From assembly GCA_030295235.1 (NCBI GenBank), contig AP026125.1:1364001-1428000 (forward strand): a stretch of 64,000 bases of DNA, written 5' to 3'. The translations under genes were made by a program, and so were the position numbers. This document shows, piece by piece, positions 5,746 through 57,401 of this stretch (position 1 is its first letter; each line of letters starts with the position of its first letter). Source of the DNA: Fistulifera solaris (taxonomy: Eukaryota). The notes under the pieces were generated by a model. It made no database searches and was not told the DNA's origin. It worked only from the letters and a program-made list of their open reading frames with translations.

Positions 5746-6477
5746 TCAAAGCGCCCCACCTTCACCAAATTCGGCAATTAATTCATTGAGTCGATGTTGC
5801 ACCTTGCTTCGTCCCTCTTCGTCCAGTCGATCAATGTACACGGTTCCATCCAAATGATCGTATTCGTGTTGGAAAATTCTGGCCTCCCAATCGGTGAATT
5901 TCCGTTTAAACTTTTTGCCTTTCATATTCATGGCTTCTACTTTGATCCACTTGGATCGCTCCACTGGCCCATCCATTCCAGGAAAACTAAGACACCCTTC
6001 GGTCTCCACGTTGCGCGCTTCACTGAATTCCACAATGGTCGGATTCACCATAATAACTTCATCGAGCCACTTTTTCGGGTCTCCCGACTGATTGTATACC
6101 ATTAAGCGCTTATTGACGCCAACTTGGGGCGCTGCCAAACCCACTCCGGCCGCCGCGTACATGACCATGAACATTTCTTTCGCAAGCTTGGCAATCGATC
6201 CATCTTTCAACTCTTCGACTGTAACTAATTCATTCGGTTTGCGTAATGCGGGATGCGGGTATTTAACAATTCGCAATTCCGTTCCTTCTACAATTCCTGG
6301 GTCGACTTCTTCTTGCAATGAGGCGAGCAGGGAGGGAGAAGGTTCGACTCTTTGAAATGCGGTTCGGCTCAATCGTGTCAAGTAGCCCGCCCTTTGAAAC
6401 GCCATCGTTGAATCAGTAAGAACAAGAAAGGCAAAAATCAATAAGAAATATGGTTTAACGAATGAAGGCGTTGCCAT
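5746..6477 (-). CDS. PDF: Organellar (probably plastid) peptide deformylase
   Basis: All three PDF motifs: GVGLAAPQVG, EGCLS, QHEYDHLDG. ATG at 6477 gives a signal peptide plus 'MAFQ'. The longer ORF-track start lies inside the repeat array. Confidence 0.93.
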   Translation of the reverse strand: MATPSFVKPYFLLIFAFLVLTDSTMAFQRAGYLTRLSRTAFQRVEPSPSLLASLQEEVDPGIVEGTELRIVKYPHPALRKPNELVTVEELKDGSIAKLAKEMFMVMYAAAGVGLAAPQVGVNKRLMVYNQSGDPKKWLDEVIMVNPTIVEFSEARNVETEGCLSFPGMDGPVERSKWIKVEAMNMKGKKFKRKFTDWEARIFQHEYDHLDGTVYIDRLDEEGRSKVQHRLNELIAEFGEGGAL

Positions 6478-6581
6478 GGTAGAAACACAACATTGGTAGT
6501 CGTATGAAATGCAAAGAAAATATGTCATGTGCCTCGTCGAACGCCACAAAAAACGACAATAAGCGCTTGGGCAAAACGATT

Positions 6582-8812
6582 GGGAAATGCACGTACGTTC
6601 CACGTAGGCCCCCGTAGGGAAATTTATCGACAGAGGGGGCACCCGGATATTCGGTAATCATTATGCCACTACTTATTCTCGGGTCAATTTTGCACCACTG
6701 TCTCGTTTACTTTTTCCAAAATGCGTTATGCAAGCGATAGATCATAATCGGCACCAATACTTTGAACTCATTGCGCAATGAGGATGAAAGATGCAATGCT
6801 TCGAATGTCTACTTCATTCTCACGTAGCCGCCGTAAGAAATTTATCTCTGCAGGGAGACCCGGAAGTGCTGAATTCCTTTCACACCATTTTCCGGGTCAA
6901 TTGTACAACAATGTCTGGTTTACTTTCACCAACATGCATTAGTCATGTCAAGTAAACACAGTCGACGACAACTGGAAACAAGAACACAGTAGAAGGATGA
7001 AAGACGCAACGCTTGGGAAATGCACGTAGATTCCACGTAGGCCCCCGTAGGGAAAATTTATCGACAGAGGGGGCACCCGGATATTCGGTAATCATTATGC
7101 CACTACTTATTCTCGGGTCAATTTTGCACCACTGTCTCGTTTACTTTTTCCAAAATGCGTTATGCAAGCGATCGATCAATAATCGATGACAATACTTGAA
7201 ATCATTGCAAAAGAGGATGAAAGATGCAACGCTCCGAATCTCTACGTCATTCTCACGTAGCCGCCGTAAGAAATTTATCTCTGCAGGGGAGACCCGGAAG
7301 TGCTGAATTCCTTTCACACCATTTTCCGGGTCAATTGTACAACAATGTCTGGCTTACTTTCACCAACATGCATTAATCATGTCAAGTAAACACAGTCGAC
7401 GACAACTGGAAACAAGAACACAGTAGAAGGATGAAAGACGCAACGCTTGGGAAATGCACGTAGATTCCACGTAGGCCCCCGTAGGGAAATTTATCGACAG
7501 AGGGGGCACCCGGATATTCGGTAATCATTATGCCACTACTTATTCTCGGGTCAATTTTGCACCACTGTCTCGTTTACTTTTTCCAAAATGCGTTATGCAA
7601 GCGATAGATCAATAATCGGCACCAATACTTTGAACTCATTGCGCAATGAGGATGAAAGATGCAATGCTTCGAATGTCTACTTCATTCTCACGTAGCCGCC
7701 GTAAGAAATTTATCTCTGCAGGGAGACCCGGAAGTGCTGAATTCCTTTCACACCATTTTCCGGGTCAATTGTACAACAATGTCTGGTTTACTTTCACCAA
7801 CATGCATTAGGCATGTCAAGTAAATACAGTCGACGACAATTGAAACAAGAACAGAGTAGAAGGATGAAAGACGCAACGCTTGGGAAATGCACGTAGGTTC
7901 CACGTAGGCCCCCGTAGGGAAATTTATCGACAGAGGGGGCACCCGGATATTCGGTAATCATTATGCCACTACTTATTCTCGGGTCAATTTTGCACCACTG
8001 TCTCGTTTACTTTTTCCAAAATGCGTTATGCAAGCGATCGATCAATAATCGATGACAATACTTGAAATCATTGCAAAAGAGGATGAAAGATGCAACGCTC
8101 CGAATCTCTACGTCATTCTCACGTAGCCGCCGTAAGAAATTTATCTCTGCAGGGAGACCCGGAAGTGCTGAATTCCTTTCACACCATTTTCCGGGTCAAT
8201 TGTACAACAATGTCTGGCTTACTTTCACCAACATGCATTAATCATGTCAAGTAAACACAGTCGACGACAACTGGAAACAAGAACACAGTAGAAGGATGAA
8301 AGACGCAACGCTTGGGAAATGCACGTAGATTCCACGTAGGCCCCCGTAGGGAAATTTATCGACAGAGGGGGCACCCGGATATTCGGTAATCATTATGCCA
8401 CTACTTATTCTCGGGTCAATTTTGCACCACTGTCTCGTTTACTTTTTCCAAAATGCGTTATGCAAGCGATCGATCAATAATCGATGACAATACTTGAAAT
8501 CATTGCAAAAGAGGATGAAAGATGCAACGCTCCGAATCTCTACGTCATTCTCACGTAGCCGCCGTAGGAAATTTATCTCTGCAGGGAGACCCGGAAGTGC
8601 TGAATTCCTTTCACACCATTTTCCGGGTCAATTGTACAACAATGTCTGGCTTACTTTCACCAACATGCATTAATCATGTCAAGTAAACACAGTCGACGAC
8701 AACTTGAAACAAGAACACAGTAGAAGGATGAAAGACGCAACGCTTCGGAAATGCACGTAGGTTCCACGTAGGCCCCCGTAAGGAAATTTATCAACAGAGG
8801 GGGCACCCGGAG
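6582..8812. repeat. Tandem array of about 5.2 copies of a 432-434 bp unit; each unit is a dimer of related ~216 bp A and B subunits
   Basis: GGGAAATGCACGTA recurs at 6582, 7015, 7449, 7882, 8314 and (variant) 8746. A core is CACGTAGGCCCCCGTAGGGAAATTTATCGACAGAGGGGGCACCCGGA. B core is CACGTAGCCGCCGTAAGAAATTTATCTCTGCAGGGAGACCCGGA. Confidence 0.97.
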
Positions 8813-8963
8813 ATTGCTCAAGAATGGCCACACTGTTGGCACTTTGATCTTTGATGCCTTGCAATATTTCATTGGCAACAAAAGCGTTTTGTTCTCCACG
8901 CCGATCCATTTTTAACATCCCTCACCACTTGTAAATTAGAAAGGCCGGCAAACTCGGCAGACA

Positions 8964-9767
8964 ATGACGAAACGGGACGTCCAAGCGAAATCGCATTATG
9001 AAGGTCACAGCTCTACTTCATACGAAAACGCCTTTTTCTACGAACCCGGTGTGTATCAAGAGTATTTGCGAGACAGGGTCCGAGCCAGTCTTCGTCTTAC
9101 TTCCGAGTCGAAGCATATATTAATTGATATAGGTGGTGGAACGGGAAATTTCACTAGGGCTATCATTGATGGGACCCAAGTGACAGCTATTGTGGTTGAC
9201 CCGTTCTTGGAGGATTCGTCGGACGACAGCAACTCGCAGTCGGTGCAATTTGTCAAAGCCGCAGCAGAAGCTTACAAACAACCACCCGGTACAGATAGAT
9301 GGAGAAATGGATACAGTCAAGTATTATTAAAAGAAGTAATTCATCACATTGCAACAACGGACAGGGTTGCCGTTCTTCGCGGCATCCGGGAAGGGATGTC
9401 GAGCAGTTCTGAGATAAAGCCGGCTATTCTCATCATCACCCGTCCACAACGTGATATTGATTATCCGCTCTGGAGCGATGCAAGAGAAGTATGGGCTCAA
9501 AATCAGCCATCATTGGGAGAATTGGTCGACGATTTGAAGAAAGCTGGTTTTCGAAATGTTGAGCATACCGTCGAGGCGTACAAGTGCCAAATCCCAATTG
9601 CACGGTGGAAAGATATGGTGAAAGCTCGTTTCTGGAGTACTTTTTCGAGCTTCTCCGACAGTGAGCTGGAAAAGGCGTGTGACGTGATCGAGCAAAATGA
9701 AGCAGGGCGCACGGTGAATGGTGTTATTTCCTTTGAGGATAGATTGCTCTTCATCAAAGCCGACTAG
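8964..9767 (+). CDS. Class I SAM-dependent methyltransferase
   Basis: Motif I LIDIGGGTGNF, post-I VVDP, LKEVIHH; intact 267-aa ORF. Confidence 0.85.
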   Translation: MTKRDVQAKSHYEGHSSTSYENAFFYEPGVYQEYLRDRVRASLRLTSESKHILIDIGGGTGNFTRAIIDGTQVTAIVVDPFLEDSSDDSNSQSVQFVKAAAEAYKQPPGTDRWRNGYSQVLLKEVIHHIATTDRVAVLRGIREGMSSSSEIKPAILIITRPQRDIDYPLWSDAREVWAQNQPSLGELVDDLKKAGFRNVEHTVEAYKCQIPIARWKDMVKARFWSTFSSFSDSELEKACDVIEQNEAGRTVNGVISFEDRLLFIKAD

Positions 9768-25784: not shown

Positions 25785-26352
25785 GACGATCACAGAATTT
25801 CTGTATGATCTGGACCAAACGCACAGAATTTCGGTATGCGATTGCAAACACAAATGGTCCAGAATTTCTGGACCAAACACACAGCATTTCTGTATGATCG
25901 CAAACACGTCCAGAATTTATGGACCAAACACACAGAATTTCTGTATGATTGCGAACACCAATGGTCCAGAATTTCAGGACGAAACACACAGAATTTCGAT
26001 ATGACTGCAAACACCAATGGTCCAGAATTTCTGGAACAAACACACACGGAATTTCTGTATCTTCGCAAACACGAGTGGTCCAGAATTTCTGGAACAAACA
26101 CACCGAATTTCTGTATGACGGCAAGCACCAATGGTCCAAACACACAGAACTTCTGTATGATTGCAAACACCAATGGTCCTGAATTTCTGGACCAAACACA
26201 CCGAATTTCTGTATGATCGCAAACACCAATGGTCCAAGAATTTCTGGACCAAACACACGGAATTTCTGTACCAGTACCAGTTATGCTTGATCGCAAACAC
26301 CAGAAATTCTGGAACGACAACAACAGAATTTCTGTGTGATCGCAAACACCGA
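25785..26352. repeat. Minisatellite, ~56-bp unit x ~10, doubly palindromic
   Basis: Consensus ATGATCGCAAACACCAATGGTCCAGAATTTCTGGACCAAACACACAGAATTTCTGT. The ATGGTCC-type anchor occurs at 25854, 25961, 26017, 26075, 26131, 26173 and 26229. Confidence 0.95.
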
Positions 26353-26521
26353 TGACTTCCAGAAAATAATTTTTTGTTGGTGGGACGGAAAGACGAAGCC
26401 GAGAACCAAGAGCCAAGAGAACCAAGAAGAGGAAACGGAGTTTTCGTGACGACGATGATGAATAATAAGTAGTAGGTGTTCCTCATTCCTCACCCGATTG
26501 TGAATTACACAAATAAAGACA

Positions 26522-29500
26522 ATGAAGATTGAAGAAGACTGTGTTAATAATCAAAGCACAGAAACCGACAACCTCATTCTTGAATGCGGAACGAGTTTCG
26601 CGGAGCGCGAACACCGTGCGGAGAGCGAAAGTGGCAAAAACGACCGCAGTTCGTTCGAGTCGATTGAGGAACTCCGCGCTCATGTTGCAAATGATGTCGT
26701 AACTTCCCAACAGCGGTACACGACCTTTGCTTCTCCGTTTGAAGTGGTTCGGGATCCTGCAGCGCCGGAGAGCCGCAGATTCTTGGAAGTCCCTCTCGTG
26801 TACGCCGATCAGACCGCTTCCAATCGTCCTCTGCAAAGCATCGAGAATTACATCCAACAAACTTGCCTACCACTTTACGGAAACACACATACAAACACAA
26901 GCATCACTGGAAGTCAAAGTACTGCTTTTGTCGCAGAAGCTCGCCAAATTGTTGCCGAAGAAACGAACGCCAAGGTGACAGGAAAAGCGAGTCTCGATGT
27001 TGTTCTTTTCGCGTAAGTGCAGTCGGTTTTGTCTCGCCGTCCGTTCCGATCCGTGTATCTTATATTCAGTTGAATCTTATACAGAGGGAACGGAGCAACT
27101 GCAACCGTCGAATTATTAATTGACTGTTTGGGCCTTCGGCATGCTTGTCAGGAACAGTCCACGCGTCCTGTCGTTTTTATTGGCCCGTACGAGCATCATT
27201 CAAATCTTGTTCCGTGGCGTGAAACTGGATGCGAAATTGTCATGGTTCCGGAGTGCTCGGATGCTACTGATATCGACTTTGATGCTCTCGACCGTCTACT
27301 CGCTAGACCGGAATACAATGGACGCTTCAAAATGGGAACCTTTTCCGCGGCGTCGAACATAACCGGTAAGATCAGCGATGTTGACCGCATTGCCGCTACG
27401 CTTCACAAACACGGGGCATTGGCGTTCTTTGACTACGCCACGGGTGCTTCCTATATGAAGATGGACATGAATCCACCGCCATCGGAAAAATACCCACTAC
27501 CTGGCTCTACTGCCAAAGACGCGATTTTTATTAGTCCACACAAAATGATAGGAGGAATCGGTACTCCAGGTGTTTTGATCATTAAGAAGCACCTTGTCAA
27601 CCAAAGTAATGCACCGCATAGGTCAGGAGGTGGAACGGTTTTCTATGTCACTAGCGAGCATCACCGCTTCCTTGGCAACAGAATTGAGCGTTATGAAGGC
27701 GGTACTCCAAACGTATCTGGAATCATTCGGACAGGACTCACTTTTTGACGAAACGAAAGATTGAGAAGGAGTACGAACGTTTGGTTTCGCAAAATGTCAA
27801 TTTACCCCGTACAGTTGAAGACCTCGACTGTGCTGAATACGAACGCATTTCGACGTTTTTAGCCCAGAAGGCGCCGAATCTTGTGTTGTTGGGGAAAGGC
27901 ACCGGTTCGCGACATCTCCCTATCTTCTCGTTTCTTATTCGCTTCCAAGGTAGATTTCTGCACTTCAATTATGTCTGTGCGATATTGAATGACGTTTTTG
28001 GAATTCAGACCAGAGGTGGATGCATGTGTTCGGGACCTTTCGCACAAAGTTTGCTTGGTTTGACTTACAAGAATGCAGACGGAGTCGATTCTCCCAACGA
28101 ATTCAACAAAGAGATTGAAGATGCGTTGATCAAGCATAAAGAACGTGCCGAACTTCTTCGTCCCGGTTTCACTCGACTGAGCCTTCCATTCAAAGGACTC
28201 CTCGATTTTGAAGTTGAATACATCTTGCATGCTTTGGTTTGGGTGGCTAAACATGGTTGGGCGTTGATGTGCCAGTATCGGTGCAACCACCGCACAGGAG
28301 AGGTACGATTTACTCATCTTGACGTTCTGACTCCTCGTTTCTATTTACTCACAAACAAATGATGGTTTGTAGTGGCGTCACTCTAATCGTCAGGGGAAAC
28401 CACTTGGACGAGAAGAAAGAAAATGGTTGAGTCATTTCGACTTAAAAGGCGACAAAGAAGTTCGTTCGATTAAAGATAACACGGAAGAGTATACCACTTT
28501 GTTGAGATCTACGTTGGCAAATGCCAACACCTTGCTCGATGTTGCAATGACAGATCAGCGGAGCATATCGCAGGCATTGAAAATGATGGATTCCGAAATT
28601 ATGGGGAAGGACGATAACATGAAGCTAGAGAGTCTGCGATGGTACGCTTATCCTAAGGAATGCGCAATGCTTCTATCATCTCACAGATATGACGAAGCCG
28701 TCCAACTGGAAATGCCTTTGCTGGGTGCCATGAAGCCAAATTACATGAACAAACGGAGGCTGTCGGCAAAGCGAGATATTGAGGCTAGTTTTGATCCTGT
28801 GAGCGACTCTACCTCTGATCCTGATTTAAGCGCTAAGAAGCAAAAAGTAGTAAATATTCCAGATCCTTCTGCTACGGAAGTAAACAATGCGAAAGCCAAA
28901 GTGAAGAAAGCCCCGAGAGATTGTTCCACATGGGGCAAAGGAGAAGTGGTACCTGTCCTCGCAAACTCACAAGAACAGACATGTACTTCTACGTCTCTGT
29001 GTATTGGCAAAGAGTCATCCGTTGGGAACAAAAGTTTCAGCACATCAAACCTCCTGCCAAGATGATGCGGCTGATTAATCAAGCGATTGTTCAATGGGAC
29101 ATGATAAAAGAAGGAGACAAGCTTCTTCTCGGTTTATCGGGAGGAAAGGATTCGCTCAGTCTCTTACACGCATTACTTGAAGTCAGGAGAAAGCACCCGG
29201 TGAAGTTTGAACTTGAAGTTTGCACTATCGATCCAATGACTCCCTCTTTCGATCCATCGTCGCTCATTCCGTATGTTGAGTCCCTAGGGCTGAAGTACCA
29301 TTATATTCGCGACGACATCGTCTCCAGGGCTGGCTCGTCTGGAAAGGACGGCAAGATGGTATGTATTGCTTCATGCTGAATGCTTAACTCGTCTACAATT
29401 GCTTTGCTTATGTTCGTTATTTAGGTATCTTCGCTATGCGCATACTGTGCAAGGATGAAAAGGGGCAATCTCTACTCGTGTGCTCGAAAGAACAATTGCA

Positions 29501-30138
29501 ACAAGCTGGTTTTAGCCCAGCACCTCGATGATTGTGCTGAGTCATTTATGATGAGTGTAATGCACAATGGTTTTTTGAGAACAATGAAAGCAAATTACAA
29601 AATCAACTCTGGGGATCTTTCGGTTATACGTCCTATGGTCTACTGTCGTGAGAGTCTAATGACAGAATTTGCGAAATCCGTTAATCTCCCCGTCATCAAC
29701 GAGAATTGTCCAGCTTGCTTTGAAGAACCAAAAGAGCGGGCGCGCATTAAGAAGTTGCTGAGCCGAGAGGAAAATCTTTATCCTAATTTTTATGACAACA
29801 TACGGCGGTCCCTCCTTCCCTTGATGCATGATGACGCAACGTCTATACTGCGGTGTTATACTGATGAAGTTGTTTCGAAAAGTCGGAAGAATGCTAAGGT
29901 TTCTACCCGCGTTGTAGACAATGAAGATACAAAAATTTCAACTGACTCTTTAACGAAAATATCAGAAGACGAGCTCATCAAAGAGCTGGCAAGGAGGAAA
30001 GCTGATCGTTTCCGGCTTTCTGGTTCAATGAAACGAGCTGACGACAGCGACATGTCGGGAATTCCTGATCCAACTGGTCAGATGTGTTCTTTAAATGGAG
30101 GGAACGGCACCATTCCATGCACAGAGCTCATGGAGTAA
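26522..30138 (+). CDS. ttcA: Aminotransferase class V (cysteine desulfurase-like) fused to TtcA-type PP-loop tRNA thiolase
   Basis: N-half: YADQTAS, YGNTHT, EHHSN, FDYA, SPHK (PLP lysine), YEGGTP, RGGCMCSG (catalytic Cys). C-half: SGGKDS, CAYC, QHLDD, IRPM, NCPAC. Introns 27013-27084, 28303-28372 and 29359-29424. Frame breaks at 27742-27746 and about 29030-29033. Confidence 0.85.
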
Positions 30139-30156
30139 CTCATGTAACGCGAATAT

Positions 30157-33100
30157 TTAGTCAAATCTATCCACTTCACCTCGTCTTGCAAGAGACTCCA
30201 CCTCTTCATCTAAATGTTCCGTTTCCCGAGCGGCTTCGAGTAGTTTTTGAGTCTGAGAGCGCGATTCCATCAGTTTTTCCCGCTGCCTTTGCGCCCATTC
30301 GTCGGCATCTCTACTCATTAACGCTATCCTTTCTTCGGGGAGTAGATCTTTCATATCCCGGCTTAGTTGAAGTAGCTTGTTTGTCATGTCTCCAAGGACG
30401 TTAGCCCCAGCAAAATTACCCCGTACGCTATCACCAAGAGATCCGACGATGTTGTCGACAACCTGTACGAACGGCCGAACGTCCAGTGAAGGCATCACAT
30501 CAATCAACTGCTTTAGAAGTAGTCTCCTCTCCACAGCGGTTTCCATCCGTAAAACATACCCTATGTGGTCAATGTACCTGTTTATACCTCGGGCCAATTC
30601 AGCATAAACACCTTGCTGCACAATTTTCAGCACAAACAACCACTGATTGTGCTCGGGATCATCGAGAAGTCCAGCGCGAGCAAGTTTTGCTTCCTCTTCG
30701 GCAACTGCGTATTTCAAATACGCGACAAACGAATCATCAAACAACGGTCTCATTTCTCTCACACCGTCAGTCAAAGCTTGTGCTGTCTCTTCTTCTGTGT
30801 CGTGTTTGGGGTCCATAGCTATCTTGCATATCGATCTAATGACTTCCAATTGTTGTGTCTCTAACTGCGCCCCAAGAGCCCGTGCTTCTTTTAGAAGAAG
30901 CTGAGCAGCAACAACTAATCCTCCAAGAAGCTGACGCTCTCGCGAACTAGTTTTTTCGGTGGCATCGTCGCCTCGGCGCATAGCTTCCAGGTCACGATCA
31001 GCCATCATGGTGAGTCTCTCTTTCACAAGTGTCACAAAATTGTCAGAGAGCAACAAATCTTTGTAGTTGGAAGTAATTTCAGTATGCCTCTCCTCCGGTT
31101 GATCCCATAGCTCATCTATAAGCATCTGTAGTTGCGAAGATTCTTTCATCTTTATCAAAGGATTGTCAATGAGTCCGATATCCACTGCTTCAACCATAAG
31201 CGTTCGCATATTTTGCACTTGCTTGTCAGTTAATTGCCGATTCCCAACAAAATAAGTCGTCACGCTGTTCCCGTCAAGCGATTCCTCTTTGACTTCTTTC
31301 ATTTTCTGGAGTACTTCCGATGCGAATTGCGCTTGTCTCAAAGCTTCGTCTAATTCCTTTGGCAGCCTTATCGTGCCTGTTCCTGGTGAGGCCCCAGGCC
31401 AGTTCACTGCGGTCTCGGGATCCACATTCGGATTGTAGACTTCTGGGCCGGAGAAAATGTCAAAGAGCGGTGCCTTCGCAGGGCCATCCAATTCTTCATC
31501 GGGAGACTTGTTGATGCGAACCTCAAGTTCCGCTAACTCGTCATCTAATATACGGGCATGACTTGATATCGAGTTTTCTAGTGCAATGAGATTATCCACC
31601 TCGTTCTTATTTTCCATCATCTCTTCCTCGCTATAAGCCCCGGACGTTTCAATTTTACTAAGACGACCGTCTGCAATGTTTTCTCCAGCCTCAAACATGC
31701 GCCGAAGCTCTTCTTCAATTGTCATTGTCTTAATATTTATTGTTTCAGCAGTTCTCGTCCTCACCTCTGCGGCAGCTTTATCGGCCACATCGTACATGAG
31801 ACGATCTTCGCGCCTCTGGCGTTGTTCCCGAAGTAGATCTTTTGCCTTCTCGAAAGCCCCACTAACAAATCCAGCGCCTACTGTACTTTCATTGTCCTGC
31901 ACCTCGCCAAATTTCATCACCTGATTTAACAATTCCTCTGGTGTGAGTTCTTCGCCTTGTTCTGACATCTCCAACAACGCGTCCTGAGCTGCTTTGATCA
32001 TTTCCCTTTGCTTCGGATCGGTAATATCACTTGGGTCATTTACCAGGTCCCGATCGGAAAGAACAGCATCACCGCCCGCATCCTGGCGAATATTCAGATT
32101 GATGTTTCGTGCTATCGGTGGATTGGGTATTACTGACGACGTTGCCTGATCCTTTAAATAGTCGGCCGGCCTTGAAATCGTTTGCATGAATGCTCGCGGC
32201 TTTCCAGTTGCAGAGCGATCTAAACTTGCAGGTCTACAAGACAACATATCCATCCTTATTGGCGAAGCCTTGTCGCCGTCAAGTCTTTCTGATTGGTTGT
32301 CCTCCTCCTCCGGAATTCGAGTGACTTTTGTATTCCCGGGTAAGCTCGTACTTCTGACGTTCTTTTTCCGCATTTTCTCAGCAGCTCTTTTGGCTGCATC
32401 CACTGCGAAATTCCCACTAGTAGTTCGTTTGGCATTACGCTCAGCGGCCAACTTGGCTTGCTGTACAGCGAAATCGAGTCCAGGCGGATTCGCTCGATTG
32501 TTTGTGGATGACGAAGACGACGCCGTACTTTTCTTCACTTCAAAAGTCCGTTGAGCGTTAGCTTCTTCTCGTGACAATTCAGAAGTAGATTGCCGTTTCG
32601 AAACAATTTCAGCGTCTGTAAAGCCTGGTTTGGGAGTCGACTCTTGTTGTAATTGGTCATCATCATTGCCCAGTATTTCCGCTAGAATCGATTCCCGACC
32701 TTCCAAGTACGAGTTCGACTTTGTTGCTCCAAATGATATCTTTCCCGACATGTATTTTTCTAACCCACGATCCAGAGCTTTCAAAATCTGTTTCTCCGAG
32801 TCTTCAAAGAGGTTCCGTAAGAACGGAGGTAACGACTTTCCCGTTTGTGGTCGCTTCCCGACAACGACCATGGCCAAGTTGGTAGTCGTTGATTGATCTT
32901 CCGGAAAGACAGCGACTACTTGAACTTCCAAACACGTCTGATCCGATGACGGCGAAAGGGACGAGTCCCACTGAACAACACTTTTTGAGTCTTTAATCGT
33001 CTTCGCCTCGTATACCATGGGAAGCCGAGGAGGAAGTTGAAAATGATCTTGTAGGTATTCGACCAGCGTACTCAGAAAAAGATGCGAACTGATGTTTGAA

Positions 33101-33315
33101 GGTGCTCTGACAATCTTCTGATACATCACAGACAAGTCTTCCGTTCTGTACGTTCCATCCGAGGCTTGGTATTGGAGGGCGATTGATCTATCAGAATGAA
33201 ACGAAGGAAGAGTCACAGAACGCAACACTACGCTTCTCCCCGTTGACGACGGAACAAAGCCACAGCTCCGAGTTATAAACAGAAGTGTAGTAAATATGAA
33301 TTTAGATGACATCAT
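30157..33315 (-). CDS. Large uncharacterised protein with bipartite plastid-type presequence and helical C-terminus
   Basis: Uninterrupted ORF of more than 1000 codons. N-terminus MMSSKFIFTTLLFITRSCG-FVPS resembles a signal peptide plus ASAFAP-type motif. Confidence 0.8.
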   Translation of the reverse strand: MMSSKFIFTTLLFITRSCGFVPSSTGRSVVLRSVTLPSFHSDRSIALQYQASDGTYRTEDLSVMYQKIVRAPSNISSHLFLSTLVEYLQDHFQLPPRLPMVYEAKTIKDSKSVVQWDSSLSPSSDQTCLEVQVVAVFPEDQSTTTNLAMVVVGKRPQTGKSLPPFLRNLFEDSEKQILKALDRGLEKYMSGKISFGATKSNSYLEGRESILAEILGNDDDQLQQESTPKPGFTDAEIVSKRQSTSELSREEANAQRTFEVKKSTASSSSSTNNRANPPGLDFAVQQAKLAAERNAKRTTSGNFAVDAAKRAAEKMRKKNVRSTSLPGNTKVTRIPEEEDNQSERLDGDKASPIRMDMLSCRPASLDRSATGKPRAFMQTISRPADYLKDQATSSVIPNPPIARNINLNIRQDAGGDAVLSDRDLVNDPSDITDPKQREMIKAAQDALLEMSEQGEELTPEELLNQVMKFGEVQDNESTVGAGFVSGAFEKAKDLLREQRQRREDRLMYDVADKAAAEVRTRTAETINIKTMTIEEELRRMFEAGENIADGRLSKIETSGAYSEEEMMENKNEVDNLIALENSISSHARILDDELAELEVRINKSPDEELDGPAKAPLFDIFSGPEVYNPNVDPETAVNWPGASPGTGTIRLPKELDEALRQAQFASEVLQKMKEVKEESLDGNSVTTYFVGNRQLTDKQVQNMRTLMVEAVDIGLIDNPLIKMKESSQLQMLIDELWDQPEERHTEITSNYKDLLLSDNFVTLVKERLTMMADRDLEAMRRGDDATEKTSSRERQLLGGLVVAAQLLLKEARALGAQLETQQLEVIRSICKIAMDPKHDTEEETAQALTDGVREMRPLFDDSFVAYLKYAVAEEEAKLARAGLLDDPEHNQWLFVLKIVQQGVYAELARGINRYIDHIGYVLRMETAVERRLLLKQLIDVMPSLDVRPFVQVVDNIVGSLGDSVRGNFAGANVLGDMTNKLLQLSRDMKDLLPEERIALMSRDADEWAQRQREKLMESRSQTQKLLEAARETEHLDEEVESLARRGEVDRFD

Positions 33316-33974
33316 GAAAATTTGTTGAAAGGTATGGAGTGGTTTTGACAATGATGTTTTTGAGTTTCGACGAAGAATAAGAACGAAAACAAAAATGCGA
33401 CCTTAGTCGCAAGCGAAGGTTCGATGGTGTAGGTTATGACGACGGTTGATGACAAGACGGATAGTCCTAACCTTACGACATCCTGTTCATAATCCATCAT
33501 TTTCGCCTCTCTAGTTTGCTATAACAAATAATTAATGCCTTCAATAGCAATGATAAAAGAATTGCGAAGTGTTTTGTCTGTTTCAGCGTGCAATGTTTAC
33601 AACACAGGCGGAAGTTGGCGAGCATCGACGACTCCTCAAACGGCTTAAGAAATGAATTCATGACTGAAATGCAGTCGTGGCTAAGTTGAAAAACAATTTA
33701 GGCTGTAGTGGTAGGTCTTGTAGAACCGTTCCGCTTTGAGGATGTTTTGTGAATAGAAACGGGGGGAGCTTTGTTTTTCTCGTTGTTTTGTGCGTGTTCG
33801 GTAACGGCTGATGGCAAAGATGCCTTCCAACATACCACCACAAGAGAGAACAAAGGGAGAACACCAATTATTTTCTCACAATGAGAAGTATTGCAGAGGA
33901 TAAAAGGGATCTTAGGCGGCTTGCTGAAGAGCGGAAAAATCCCCCCTGTACGATTAGTAACATCGTCTGGTTCC

Positions 33975-57328: not shown

Positions 57329-57401
57329 TCTCCCATAGTGTAGTGGTTTAGCACCCCACACTTTGAATGTGGTAACCTGAGTTCGACTCTCAGTGGGAGA
57401 A
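57329..57401 (+). tRNA. trnQ-UUG: tRNA-Gln, anticodon TTG
   Basis: Full cloverleaf: acceptor TCTCCCA/TGGGAGA, D stem GTGT/GCAC, anticodon stem CCACA/TGTGG with loop CT-TTG-AA, T stem CTGAG/CTCAG with loop TTCGACT. Confidence 0.95.

Follow-up and report, generated by a model that had tools for sequence, protein, structure and literature searches.

Organization of the locus

We analysed a window of 64,000 nucleotides (nt) of contig AP026125.1 from the diatom Fistulifera solaris, and all coordinates given here are positions in that window. At 26522-30138 on the plus strand lies a gene whose product joins a cysteine desulfurase-like domain of the pyridoxal 5'-phosphate (PLP) class to a TtcA-like PP-loop domain. 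As written, this span holds six stop-free stretches on the plus strand that encode, in order, an acidic N-terminus, a class-V PLP domain, a spacer and a PP-loop domain. The open reading frame (ORF) opens at 26504 with its first ATG at 26522, and both this start codon and the TAA stop at 30136-30138, as read from the sequence, agree with a preliminary description of the locus, whose named motifs are likewise all present (SPHK, RGGCMCSGP, SGGKDS, CAYC, HLDD and CPAC). Contigs from four coded public runs (X1-X4), whose records do not state RNA, were placed on the locus. With two homopolymer errors of the assembly set right, the locus is one expressed nuclear gene of four exons, with a coding sequence of 491+1219+987+714 = 3411 nt, or 1136 codons plus the stop. 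Its parts are as follows.

Exon 1, 26522..27012 (+): start codon, acidic N-terminus and first part of the PLP domain (…YGNTHTNTSITGSQST…DVVLF), followed by a GT donor at 27013
Intron 1, 27013..27084 (+): 72 nt, GT..AG, skipped by X2, X3 and X4 contigs, the shorter flank of the joint measuring 107-134 nt
Exon 2, 27085..28302 (+): SufS-like PLP core and start of the C-terminal extension of the family (…NHRTGE)
Motifs read in exon 2 (+): HHSN, SAASNITG, DYATGA, SPHK (Lys codon 27542-27544), RGGCMCSGP at 28012-28038, and LLRPGFTRLS
Run of five Ts, 27742..27746 (+): one base short in the window, which as written gives TGA at 27746 after ...GLTF
SufS-equivalent Cys codon, 28027-28029 (+): within RGGCMCSGP of exon 2, placed by profile alignment to solved SufS structures
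Intron 2, 28303..28372 (+): 70 nt, GT..AG, skipped by X3 and X4 contigs
Exon 3, 28373..29358 (+): rest of the PLP extension, followed by the variable spacer and by the first half of the TtcA-like domain
PLP-extension stretch read in exon 3 (+): WRH…RKWLSHFD…DQRSISQALKMM…LRWYAYPKE
Run of four As, 29030..29033 (+): one base short in the window; five As join the spacer frame to the TtcA frame (…SSVGNKKFQHIKPPAKMM…)
PP-loop motif SGGKDS, 29137-29154 (+): in exon 3
Intron 3, 29359..29424 (+): 66 nt, GT..AG, skipped by X2, X3 and X4 contigs
Exon 4, 29425..30138 (+): second half of the TtcA-like domain, a spacer, the dicysteine tail and the stop at 30136-30138
Motifs read in exon 4 (+): CAYC at 29437-29448, QHLDD, and CPAC at 29707-29718
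C-terminal dicysteine tail, 30085-30135 (+): …CSLNGGNGTIPCTELME, with Cys codons at 30085-30087 and 30118-30120

Splicing and repair of the reading frame

Since the gaps in the X2-X4 contigs at the predicted introns measure exactly 72, 70 and 66 nt, these runs contain spliced RNA, while X1 contigs retain the introns. The preliminary description had called the locus intron-containing and had proposed a transcript check across 28900-29100. Three introns are indeed confirmed by the spliced contigs, but none of them lies in 28900-29100, where the contigs run straight through and an extra A, not an intron, explains the change of frame. We also considered a fourth intron at 28949-29040 (GT..AG, 92 nt, in the right phase) and rejected it, since contigs cross it and the extra A gives the same frame change.

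As written, the frame of the window is interrupted twice, by the TGA at 27746 and again between 28949 and 29065. Every covering contig has an extra T behind 27741 (depth 51.2 of 51.2 in X1 and 8.87 of 8.87 in X3) and an extra A behind 29029 (18.6 of 18.6 in X1 and 19.1 of 19.1 in X3), the contigs over the A run including X1 record 5, which shows no further difference from the window (0 other letters, 1 gap). Homologues are colinear across the T run, reading GLTFLLKRK without a gap, and the homologue P0001, to which the exon 4 product is 87% identical, is colinear across the A run (…RNRKFKHIKPPPKMM…, ...RNRKFKHIKPP). With six Ts and five As the gene therefore reads as a single continuous frame and needs no intron at 28900-29100; moreover, X4 record 24, X3 record 18 and X4 record 25 tile 28178-29228, leading from the PLP domain through the spacer to the PP-loop region. 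The two short runs are likely assembly errors, and other genes of the same assembly may carry similar ones. The single-polypeptide architecture of the preliminary description is borne out both by this repaired frame, tiled by spliced contigs, and by complete diatom transcriptome ORFs carrying both Pfam domains. Transcriptome homologues also begin at the same place as exon 1, at …LECGTSLAE.EH.

Over 26400-30300 the runs contain a second version of the sequence, a few to about 8% divergent (e.g. X1 records 3/4 and 6/7). Of the 21 differences listed for the last exon, 16 fall at third codon positions, and one spacer indel between the versions is of 3 nt and in frame, so that both versions appear to be under constraint as coding sequence. 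Divergent alleles or two subgenomes could account for them.

The PLP half resembles type-II cysteine desulfurases

The preliminary description had named Aminotran_5 and ATP_bind_3 as the Pfam families to scan for, and hidden Markov model (HMM) searches matched both, the former with E 6.5e-23 on 27074-27748 and the latter, a PP-loop family, with E 3.3e-08 on 29425-30135. Among NCBIfam models the SufS subfamily ranks top for the PLP exon with 79.3 bits; its cut-off (TIGR01979, 475 bits) is not reached by the exon, nor by intact eukaryotic and bacterial homologues, which score 96.5-126.2 bits. When a profile of 16 fused proteins was compared with solved type-II cysteine desulfurases, the best match was 8d8s_A (E 1.4e-37), and the alignment places SgHK on SGHK, eHHsN on EHHAN, tRlSl on the C-terminal SRISM, and GIQsRgGCqCaGP on GVAVRAGHHCAQP. 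Because the second Cys of the RGGCxC loop aligns with the Cys of RAGHHC, it occupies the position of the persulfide-forming Cys of SufS. The Lys, the Arg, both Cys and the C-terminal Arg are invariant in all 16 fused proteins.

Bacterial stand-alone relatives of this half, ~560-600 residues long and 35-42% identical, occur in Myxococcota, Actinomycetota, Gemmatimonadota, Chloroflexota and others, and match the query up to residue ~676, extension included. Since these homologues cover it, part of the apparent linker is a family-specific C-terminal extension. The predicted fold of one such homologue (L005, from an Acidimicrobiia metagenome-assembled genome), which serves here as a proxy for the window protein, has a pLDDT of 90.8 and a pTM of 0.90 with the extension included, and its listed Foldseek neighbours are all type-II enzymes (SufS, CsdB, Nfs2-type) or selenocysteine lyase, with target-normalised TM scores of 0.84-0.89. 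To judge from these alignments and this model, the first ~570 residues of the protein form a PLP enzyme of type II (SufS/CsdA fold) that has a C-terminal extension of its own. The intact class-V domain with its SPHK Lys and Cys loop, as previously described, is in keeping with a SufS-type fold whose Cys would stand in the catalytic position, and we infer that the domain is an active L-cysteine desulfurase.

Two further arrangements of this PLP family were observed. P0129, a complete ORF from an MMETSP transcript, has it fused to a response-regulator receiver domain and lacks the PP-loop domain, and in L005 a MOSC-domain gene (7584-8045) directly follows the stand-alone PLP gene, which is so at 1 of 12 loci examined.

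The PP-loop half is TtcA-like

The top PP-loop match in NCBIfam is TtcA (NF007972), with 77.7 bits on 29041-29358 and 108.7 bits on exon 4; TilS, TtuA and NcsA lie far behind, the latter (NF047749) with 21.5 bits on the exon. Intact homologues score 189.4-216.8 bits on the TtcA model versus no more than 46.6 for TtuA and 30.6 for NcsA (cut-offs 450 and 500), and TtcA leads TtuA, NcsA and TilS by more than 140 bits. The preliminary description had assigned this half to the TtcA type and not to Ncs6/CTU1 or TtuA, which agrees both with these scores and with 47-53% identity to gammaproteobacterial TtcA-like proteins. It had also noted that flanking zinc fingers are missing, and the TtcA part of the 16-protein alignment contains no further conserved CxxC.

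SGGKDS is invariant in 16/16 fused proteins. In E. coli TtcA the ligands of the [4Fe-4S] cluster are C122, C125 and C222, and in vitro the enzyme obtains its sulfur from the cysteine/IscS system, according to the available parts of that report (PMC4081106). In the fused-protein alignment the counterparts of these ligands, matched by motif and HMM position and not by structure, are kept, C1028 being invariant and C1025 and C1118 at least 90% conserved. The ~260-residue C-terminal core thus appears to be a TtcA-like PP-loop ATPase with three Cys for a [4Fe-4S] cluster.

Among the bacterial proteins found, those closest to this half are TtcA-like and come from Thiotrichales and other Gammaproteobacteria; they score 201-213 bits. 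Those of Thiofilum (L002) and Thermithiobacillus (L040) score 213 and 202 bits on the TtcA model, canonical Enhygromyxa TtcA 356-360. The Thiofilum genome holds no other TtcA candidate, so this protein is probably its TtcA. Together with the eukaryotic domains, the Thiofilum and Thermithiobacillus proteins seem to form a distinct TtcA subfamily.

Spacer, C-terminal tail and accessory modules

Sequence conservation is poor in the spacer, whose length varies by hundreds of residues from member to member; the spacer exon matched no Pfam or NCBIfam family, and an Atlas feature search reached at most 0.85, which is lead level only. At the other end of the protein, the diatom form of the dicysteine tail (…CSLNGG.G.IPC.ELME) occurs in 67 of 120 listed relatives, with shorter dicysteine tails in Triparma, Chrysoparadoxa and two further relatives, and it is absent from the animal and bacterial sequences examined. 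The conserved ochrophyte tail is a feature not described before. It sits where two other members carry a whole module after the TtcA domain, namely a thioredoxin in P0233 (a dinoflagellate) and a rhodanese in P0254. We can only speculate that the tail serves as a sulfur or redox shuttle.

Distribution and origin of the fusion

Searching the longer proteins with the last exon yielded 425 matches, and the counts over 120 relatives refer to the best 120 of these 425. PF00266 and PF01171 are both present in 69/120 by precomputed annotation and in 78/120 by our own domain HMMs, relatives without both domains being mostly short gene calls on small contigs. Named diatom members come from Thalassiosira, Skeletonema, Pseudo-nitzschia, Nitzschia, Ditylum, Mayamaea and Cylindrotheca, and diatom MMETSP transcriptomes contain complete two-domain ORFs of 1203-1334 residues. 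The preliminary description had proposed looking for the same domain order in other stramenopiles, and it is present in diatoms, bolidophytes and other ochrophytes. In fact the fusion extends well beyond stramenopiles and is widespread among eukaryotes, and its members were already in databases. When the whole library was searched with the exon of the PLP small domain, 1774 relatives came up at E <= 0.001, and of the long diverse representatives scanned 29/43 have both domains. Members outside the diatoms include Triparma (a bolidophyte), Chrysoparadoxa, the dinoflagellate Biecheleria, Amoebophrya (Syndiniales) and the choanoflagellate Choanoeca, and among animals Octopus, Penaeus, Cimex, Temnothorax and Diorhabda. 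The diatom proteins align over their full length with those of Octopus (P0175), Cimex and Penaeus.

For the trees, bacterial rows were drawn from pattern-matched loci only, roots are not fixed, and the sets comprise sequences other than the Aplysia protein discussed below. In a quick maximum-likelihood tree of the TtcA parts, the 27 eukaryotic rows form one clade (SH-like approximate likelihood ratio 80), which adjoins Thermithiobacillus (94) inside a gammaproteobacterial TtcA-like group, and the canonical Enhygromyxa proteins stand apart from this eukaryote-plus-gammaproteobacterial group on a very long branch. In the PLP tree a branch with 100% support splits the 29 bacterial rows from all eukaryotic rows, and stand-alone PLP paralogues of animals (Branchiostoma, Capitella, Argonauta) are nested among fused forms. 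Both halves thus point to common descent with the animal members, and the pattern suggests a single fusion early in eukaryotes, or one that spread among them, followed by losses and duplications.

An origin from a bacterial operon was considered and rejected. None of 59 bacterial PLP loci and none of 20 bacterial TtcA-like loci has the other gene within ~6 kb, and the sole locus with both is L001, a sequence filed under a 'Verrucomicrobiota' metagenome-assembled genome that encodes the whole fusion at 6001-9629, its TtcA part being 72% identical to a diatom protein. The fusion in L001 is split into short ORFs in the way that introns would split it, and so the sequence probably comes from a eukaryote and ended up in a bacterial bin. 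The 47 flanking ORFs at 12 bacterial PLP loci include no recurrent partner.

Comparison with known systems

A recent preprint reports 2-thiocytidine at position 32 (s2C32) on tRNA-Lys(UUU) of the sea slug Aplysia (bioRxiv 10.64898/2026.09.27.754811), so that thiocytidine in eukaryotic cytosolic tRNA, which the preliminary description had predicted for this lineage, has been encountered in an animal where an orthologous fusion is the named candidate enzyme. According to the available parts of the preprint, this candidate is an 'IscS-TtcA' fusion of 1177 residues (LOC101861551) and the only Aplysia homologue of TtcA, fusion homologues are listed from molluscs, insects and birds, the catalytic Cys could not be placed, and a single versus a multiple origin of the fusion is left open (10.64898/2026.09.27.754811). 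The main text of the preprint, as available, does not contain the words diatom, protist, alga, choanoflagellate, knock or SufS (10.64898/2026.09.27.754811). Our literature search found the term 'IscS-TtcA' in this preprint alone, and for TtcA in diatoms the 15 matches listed, of 123, held only primer-sequence noise.

The diatom gene is a member of this eukaryotic fusion family recognised in 2026. Like Aplysia IscS-TtcA, as far as the latter is described, its product has a COG0520-type PLP domain, a variable spacer and a TtcA-like domain in that order and at a similar length, and conserves the PLP Lys, the Cys-x-Cys loop, SGGKDS, the C..C pair and CPAC; moreover, the molluscan Octopus protein can be aligned with the diatom proteins over its entire length and groups with them in one eukaryotic clade. 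Two differences are apparent. Members from diatoms and other ochrophytes have the C-terminal dicysteine tail whereas animal members are without it, and the catalytic Cys left unplaced in the preprint can be aligned here with the SufS Cys.

Similar to E. coli TtcA, as available in PMC4081106, the C-terminal half has a PP-loop, three Cys ligands and no flanking zinc fingers, and its sulfur would come from a desulfurase. However, in contrast to bacterial TtcA and IscS, the diatom desulfurase-like domain is covalently attached and of the SufS type, not the IscS type, and unlike canonical TtcA this family scores below the equivalog cut-off and has its nearest relatives (47-53% identity) among Thiotrichales-type proteins. 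With SufS and CsdA the PLP half shares the fold, the PLP Lys, the position of the active-site Cys and the substrate-binding Arg, but it has an RGGCxC(A/S)GP loop, scores far below the SufS HMM cut-off, and carries a structured C-terminal extension of ~100-150 residues that is common to the bacterial stand-alone homologues. We know of no separate acceptor protein for the PLP domain of the fusion family, unlike SufS and CsdA with SufE, SufU or CsdE. The molybdenum cofactor sulfurase MOCOS/ABA3 consists of a NifS-like domain fused to a sulfur-accepting MOSC-type domain; it resembles the diatom protein in joining a desulfurase-like domain to one that uses its persulfide, but its acceptor domain binds a cofactor and is not a PP-loop tRNA enzyme, and its PLP domain belongs to another subfamily. 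The bacterial L005 locus, with a MOSC-domain gene right behind the PLP gene, echoes the MOCOS arrangement. In Bacillus subtilis, YrvO-MnmA and NifZ-ThiI are pairs in which a private desulfurase directly supplies one tRNA thiolase with no long relay. These, however, are two separate proteins in each case, and their thiolases are independent of Fe-S clusters and yield 2-thiouridine at position 34 and 4-thiouridine at position 8.

Proposed function

We propose, with somewhat better than even confidence, that the gene encodes a cytosolic bifunctional enzyme whose own desulfurase feeds its own TtcA-like domain to make s2C32 on cytosolic tRNA. Acting on L-cysteine, the PLP domain would bind the released sulfur as a persulfide at the RGGCxC loop Cys and hand it, directly or by way of the dicysteine tail, to the [4Fe-4S] cluster of the TtcA domain at its free iron site. 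The PP-loop would then adenylate C2 of cytidine 32 in certain cytosolic tRNAs, and cluster-bound sulfide would displace adenosine monophosphate to give 2-thiocytidine. The starting points of this proposal, namely the gene structure and its splicing, the conserved fusion, the fold class and the conservation of catalytic residues, are observed. That the protein has desulfurase activity, passes the sulfur on internally, acts on these tRNAs and resides in the cytosol is suggested by knowledge of the families together with the co-occurrence in Aplysia. As to location, the N-terminus read by eye is acidic with no hydrophobic leader, consistent with the lack of an evident targeting peptide in the preliminary description.

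Several points weigh against this proposal. To our knowledge no member of the fusion has had a biochemical or genetic test, and what is available of the Aplysia preprint offers co-occurrence only (10.64898/2026.09.27.754811). Our literature search found no report of thiocytidine from a diatom. The PLP domain lies far under the SufS cut-off, the TtcA equivalog cut-off of 272 bits is reached neither by the window exons nor by intact homologues, and the specificity of either domain could therefore have drifted. The RGGCxC loop is unlike the RxGHHC of SufS, a SufE/SufU-type acceptor is not evident, and with a spacer so long and variable the protein might be cleaved. In addition, P0182 from the beetle Diorhabda lacks CPAC and the first Cys of CxxC, and the TtcA half is therefore not under uniform constraint. 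The same protein has lost part of the GGGT motif of its PLP domain while keeping the overall architecture, and may be degenerate or repurposed.

Among other explanations, one that we consider unlikely, though worth serious attention, is that the PLP domain assembles or mends the [4Fe-4S] cluster of the TtcA domain to which it is fused, or supplies other acceptors, with the tRNA sulfur coming from free sulfide or an NFS1-derived relay. TtcA needs such a cluster, for which E. coli requires both IscS and IscU in the available account (PMC4081106), and stand-alone PLP copies exist in animals such as Branchiostoma and Capitella and in bacteria, where none of the 59 loci has TtcA within 6 kb, so that the domain has, by this evidence, uses independent of TtcA. 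Nevertheless, E. coli TtcA draws on cysteine and IscS for sulfur in vitro (PMC4081106, as available), a conserved covalent fusion and the variants with a C-terminal thioredoxin or rhodanese fit a dedicated relay better, and the two roles are not mutually exclusive. We give much the same low weight to the idea that the TtcA-like domain makes another thionucleoside, acts at another position, makes a seleno-nucleoside (with the PLP domain as selenocysteine lyase) or has a substrate other than tRNA. The domain and its nearest bacterial relatives (213 and 202 bits, versus 356-360 for canonical Enhygromyxa) fall below 272 bits, canonical TtcA stands on its very long branch, and SufS-type enzymes also use selenocysteine, with selenocysteine lyase among the titles of the neighbouring PDB entries. 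Yet TtcA remains the best family by more than 140 bits over TtuA, NcsA and TilS, the Thiofilum member of the subfamily is probably that organism's TtcA, and Aplysia, in the available text, has s2C32 and only a fused TtcA homologue (10.64898/2026.09.27.754811).

A fusion kept for co-expression only, its spacer cut after translation so that two separate enzymes act, appears less probable again. Poor spacer conservation and hundreds of residues of length variation would suit it, and the Aplysia preprint raises the same possibility in its available parts (10.64898/2026.09.27.754811), but co-regulation in eukaryotes needs no gene fusion, the fused architecture is kept across very distant lineages, and no cleavage motif was seen. 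Action in the plastid or mitochondrion on organellar tRNAs would agree with the bacterial ancestry of the TtcA and SufS types. It is nonetheless very improbable considering that no signal peptide or presequence was seen by eye at the acidic N-terminus, that the same fusion occurs in plastid-less animals and a choanoflagellate, and that the Aplysia tRNA with s2C32 also bears the cytosolic-type modification 5-methoxycarbonylmethyl-2-thiouridine, as stated in the available part of the preprint (10.64898/2026.09.27.754811). Hardly credible is a reading of the locus as a pseudogene or as two adjacent genes: the window as written does have the TGA at 27746, and the end of its spacer frame, at 29063-29065, overlaps an ATG at 29062 that lies in the TtcA frame, but the extra T and extra A stand in every covering contig, that of the otherwise identical X1 record 5 included, the differences between the two versions lie mostly at third codon positions, and homologues are colinear.

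Beyond the bifunctional enzyme proposed here, a broader picture is conceivable, which we hold as a tentative and rather doubtful possibility taken as a whole. In it s2C32 would be widespread but overlooked in eukaryotic cytosolic tRNA, ranging over diatoms, other ochrophytes, alveolates, choanoflagellates and invertebrates, and made by one ancient enzyme of bacterial descent and single origin that, by mobilising its own sulfur, bypasses both NFS1/ISC export and the URM1 relay. The stramenopile tail (C-x(2-11)-C-x-E-L/M/I…) would then be a swinging arm that carries persulfide or reducing equivalents from the SufS-like site to the [4Fe-4S] site, replacing SufE/SufU-type acceptors and the thioredoxin or rhodanese modules.

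Significance

Diatoms are major marine primary producers with working CRISPR genetics. Should the bifunctional enzyme proposed here be correct, they carry s2C32 in cytosolic tRNA and would be far more tractable than a sea slug for proving the link from gene to modification that the Aplysia preprint, in its available parts, only suggested. The protein would also be the first tRNA thiolase known with its own cysteine desulfurase, and a compact model for the hand-over of persulfide to a [4Fe-4S] cluster. Our analysis moreover bears on questions left open in that preprint, through the apparent single origin of both domains across distant eukaryotes, the likely catalytic Cys at the SufS position, and the lineage-specific C-terminal tails and modules.

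Genomic neighbourhood

Some ~250 nt upstream of the start codon lies a tandem array at 25809-26270, with a unit of ~56 nt in 5.9 copies (81% match) and higher-order periods of 98, 156 and 212. The convergent neighbour at 30157-33402 on the minus strand is an open frame of 1081 codons for which Pfam gave no match at E <= 0.001. The window contains a single tRNA gene, tRNA-Gln(UUG) at 57329-57401, with C at 32 and A at 38; it is a possible substrate type, with no evidence that it is one.

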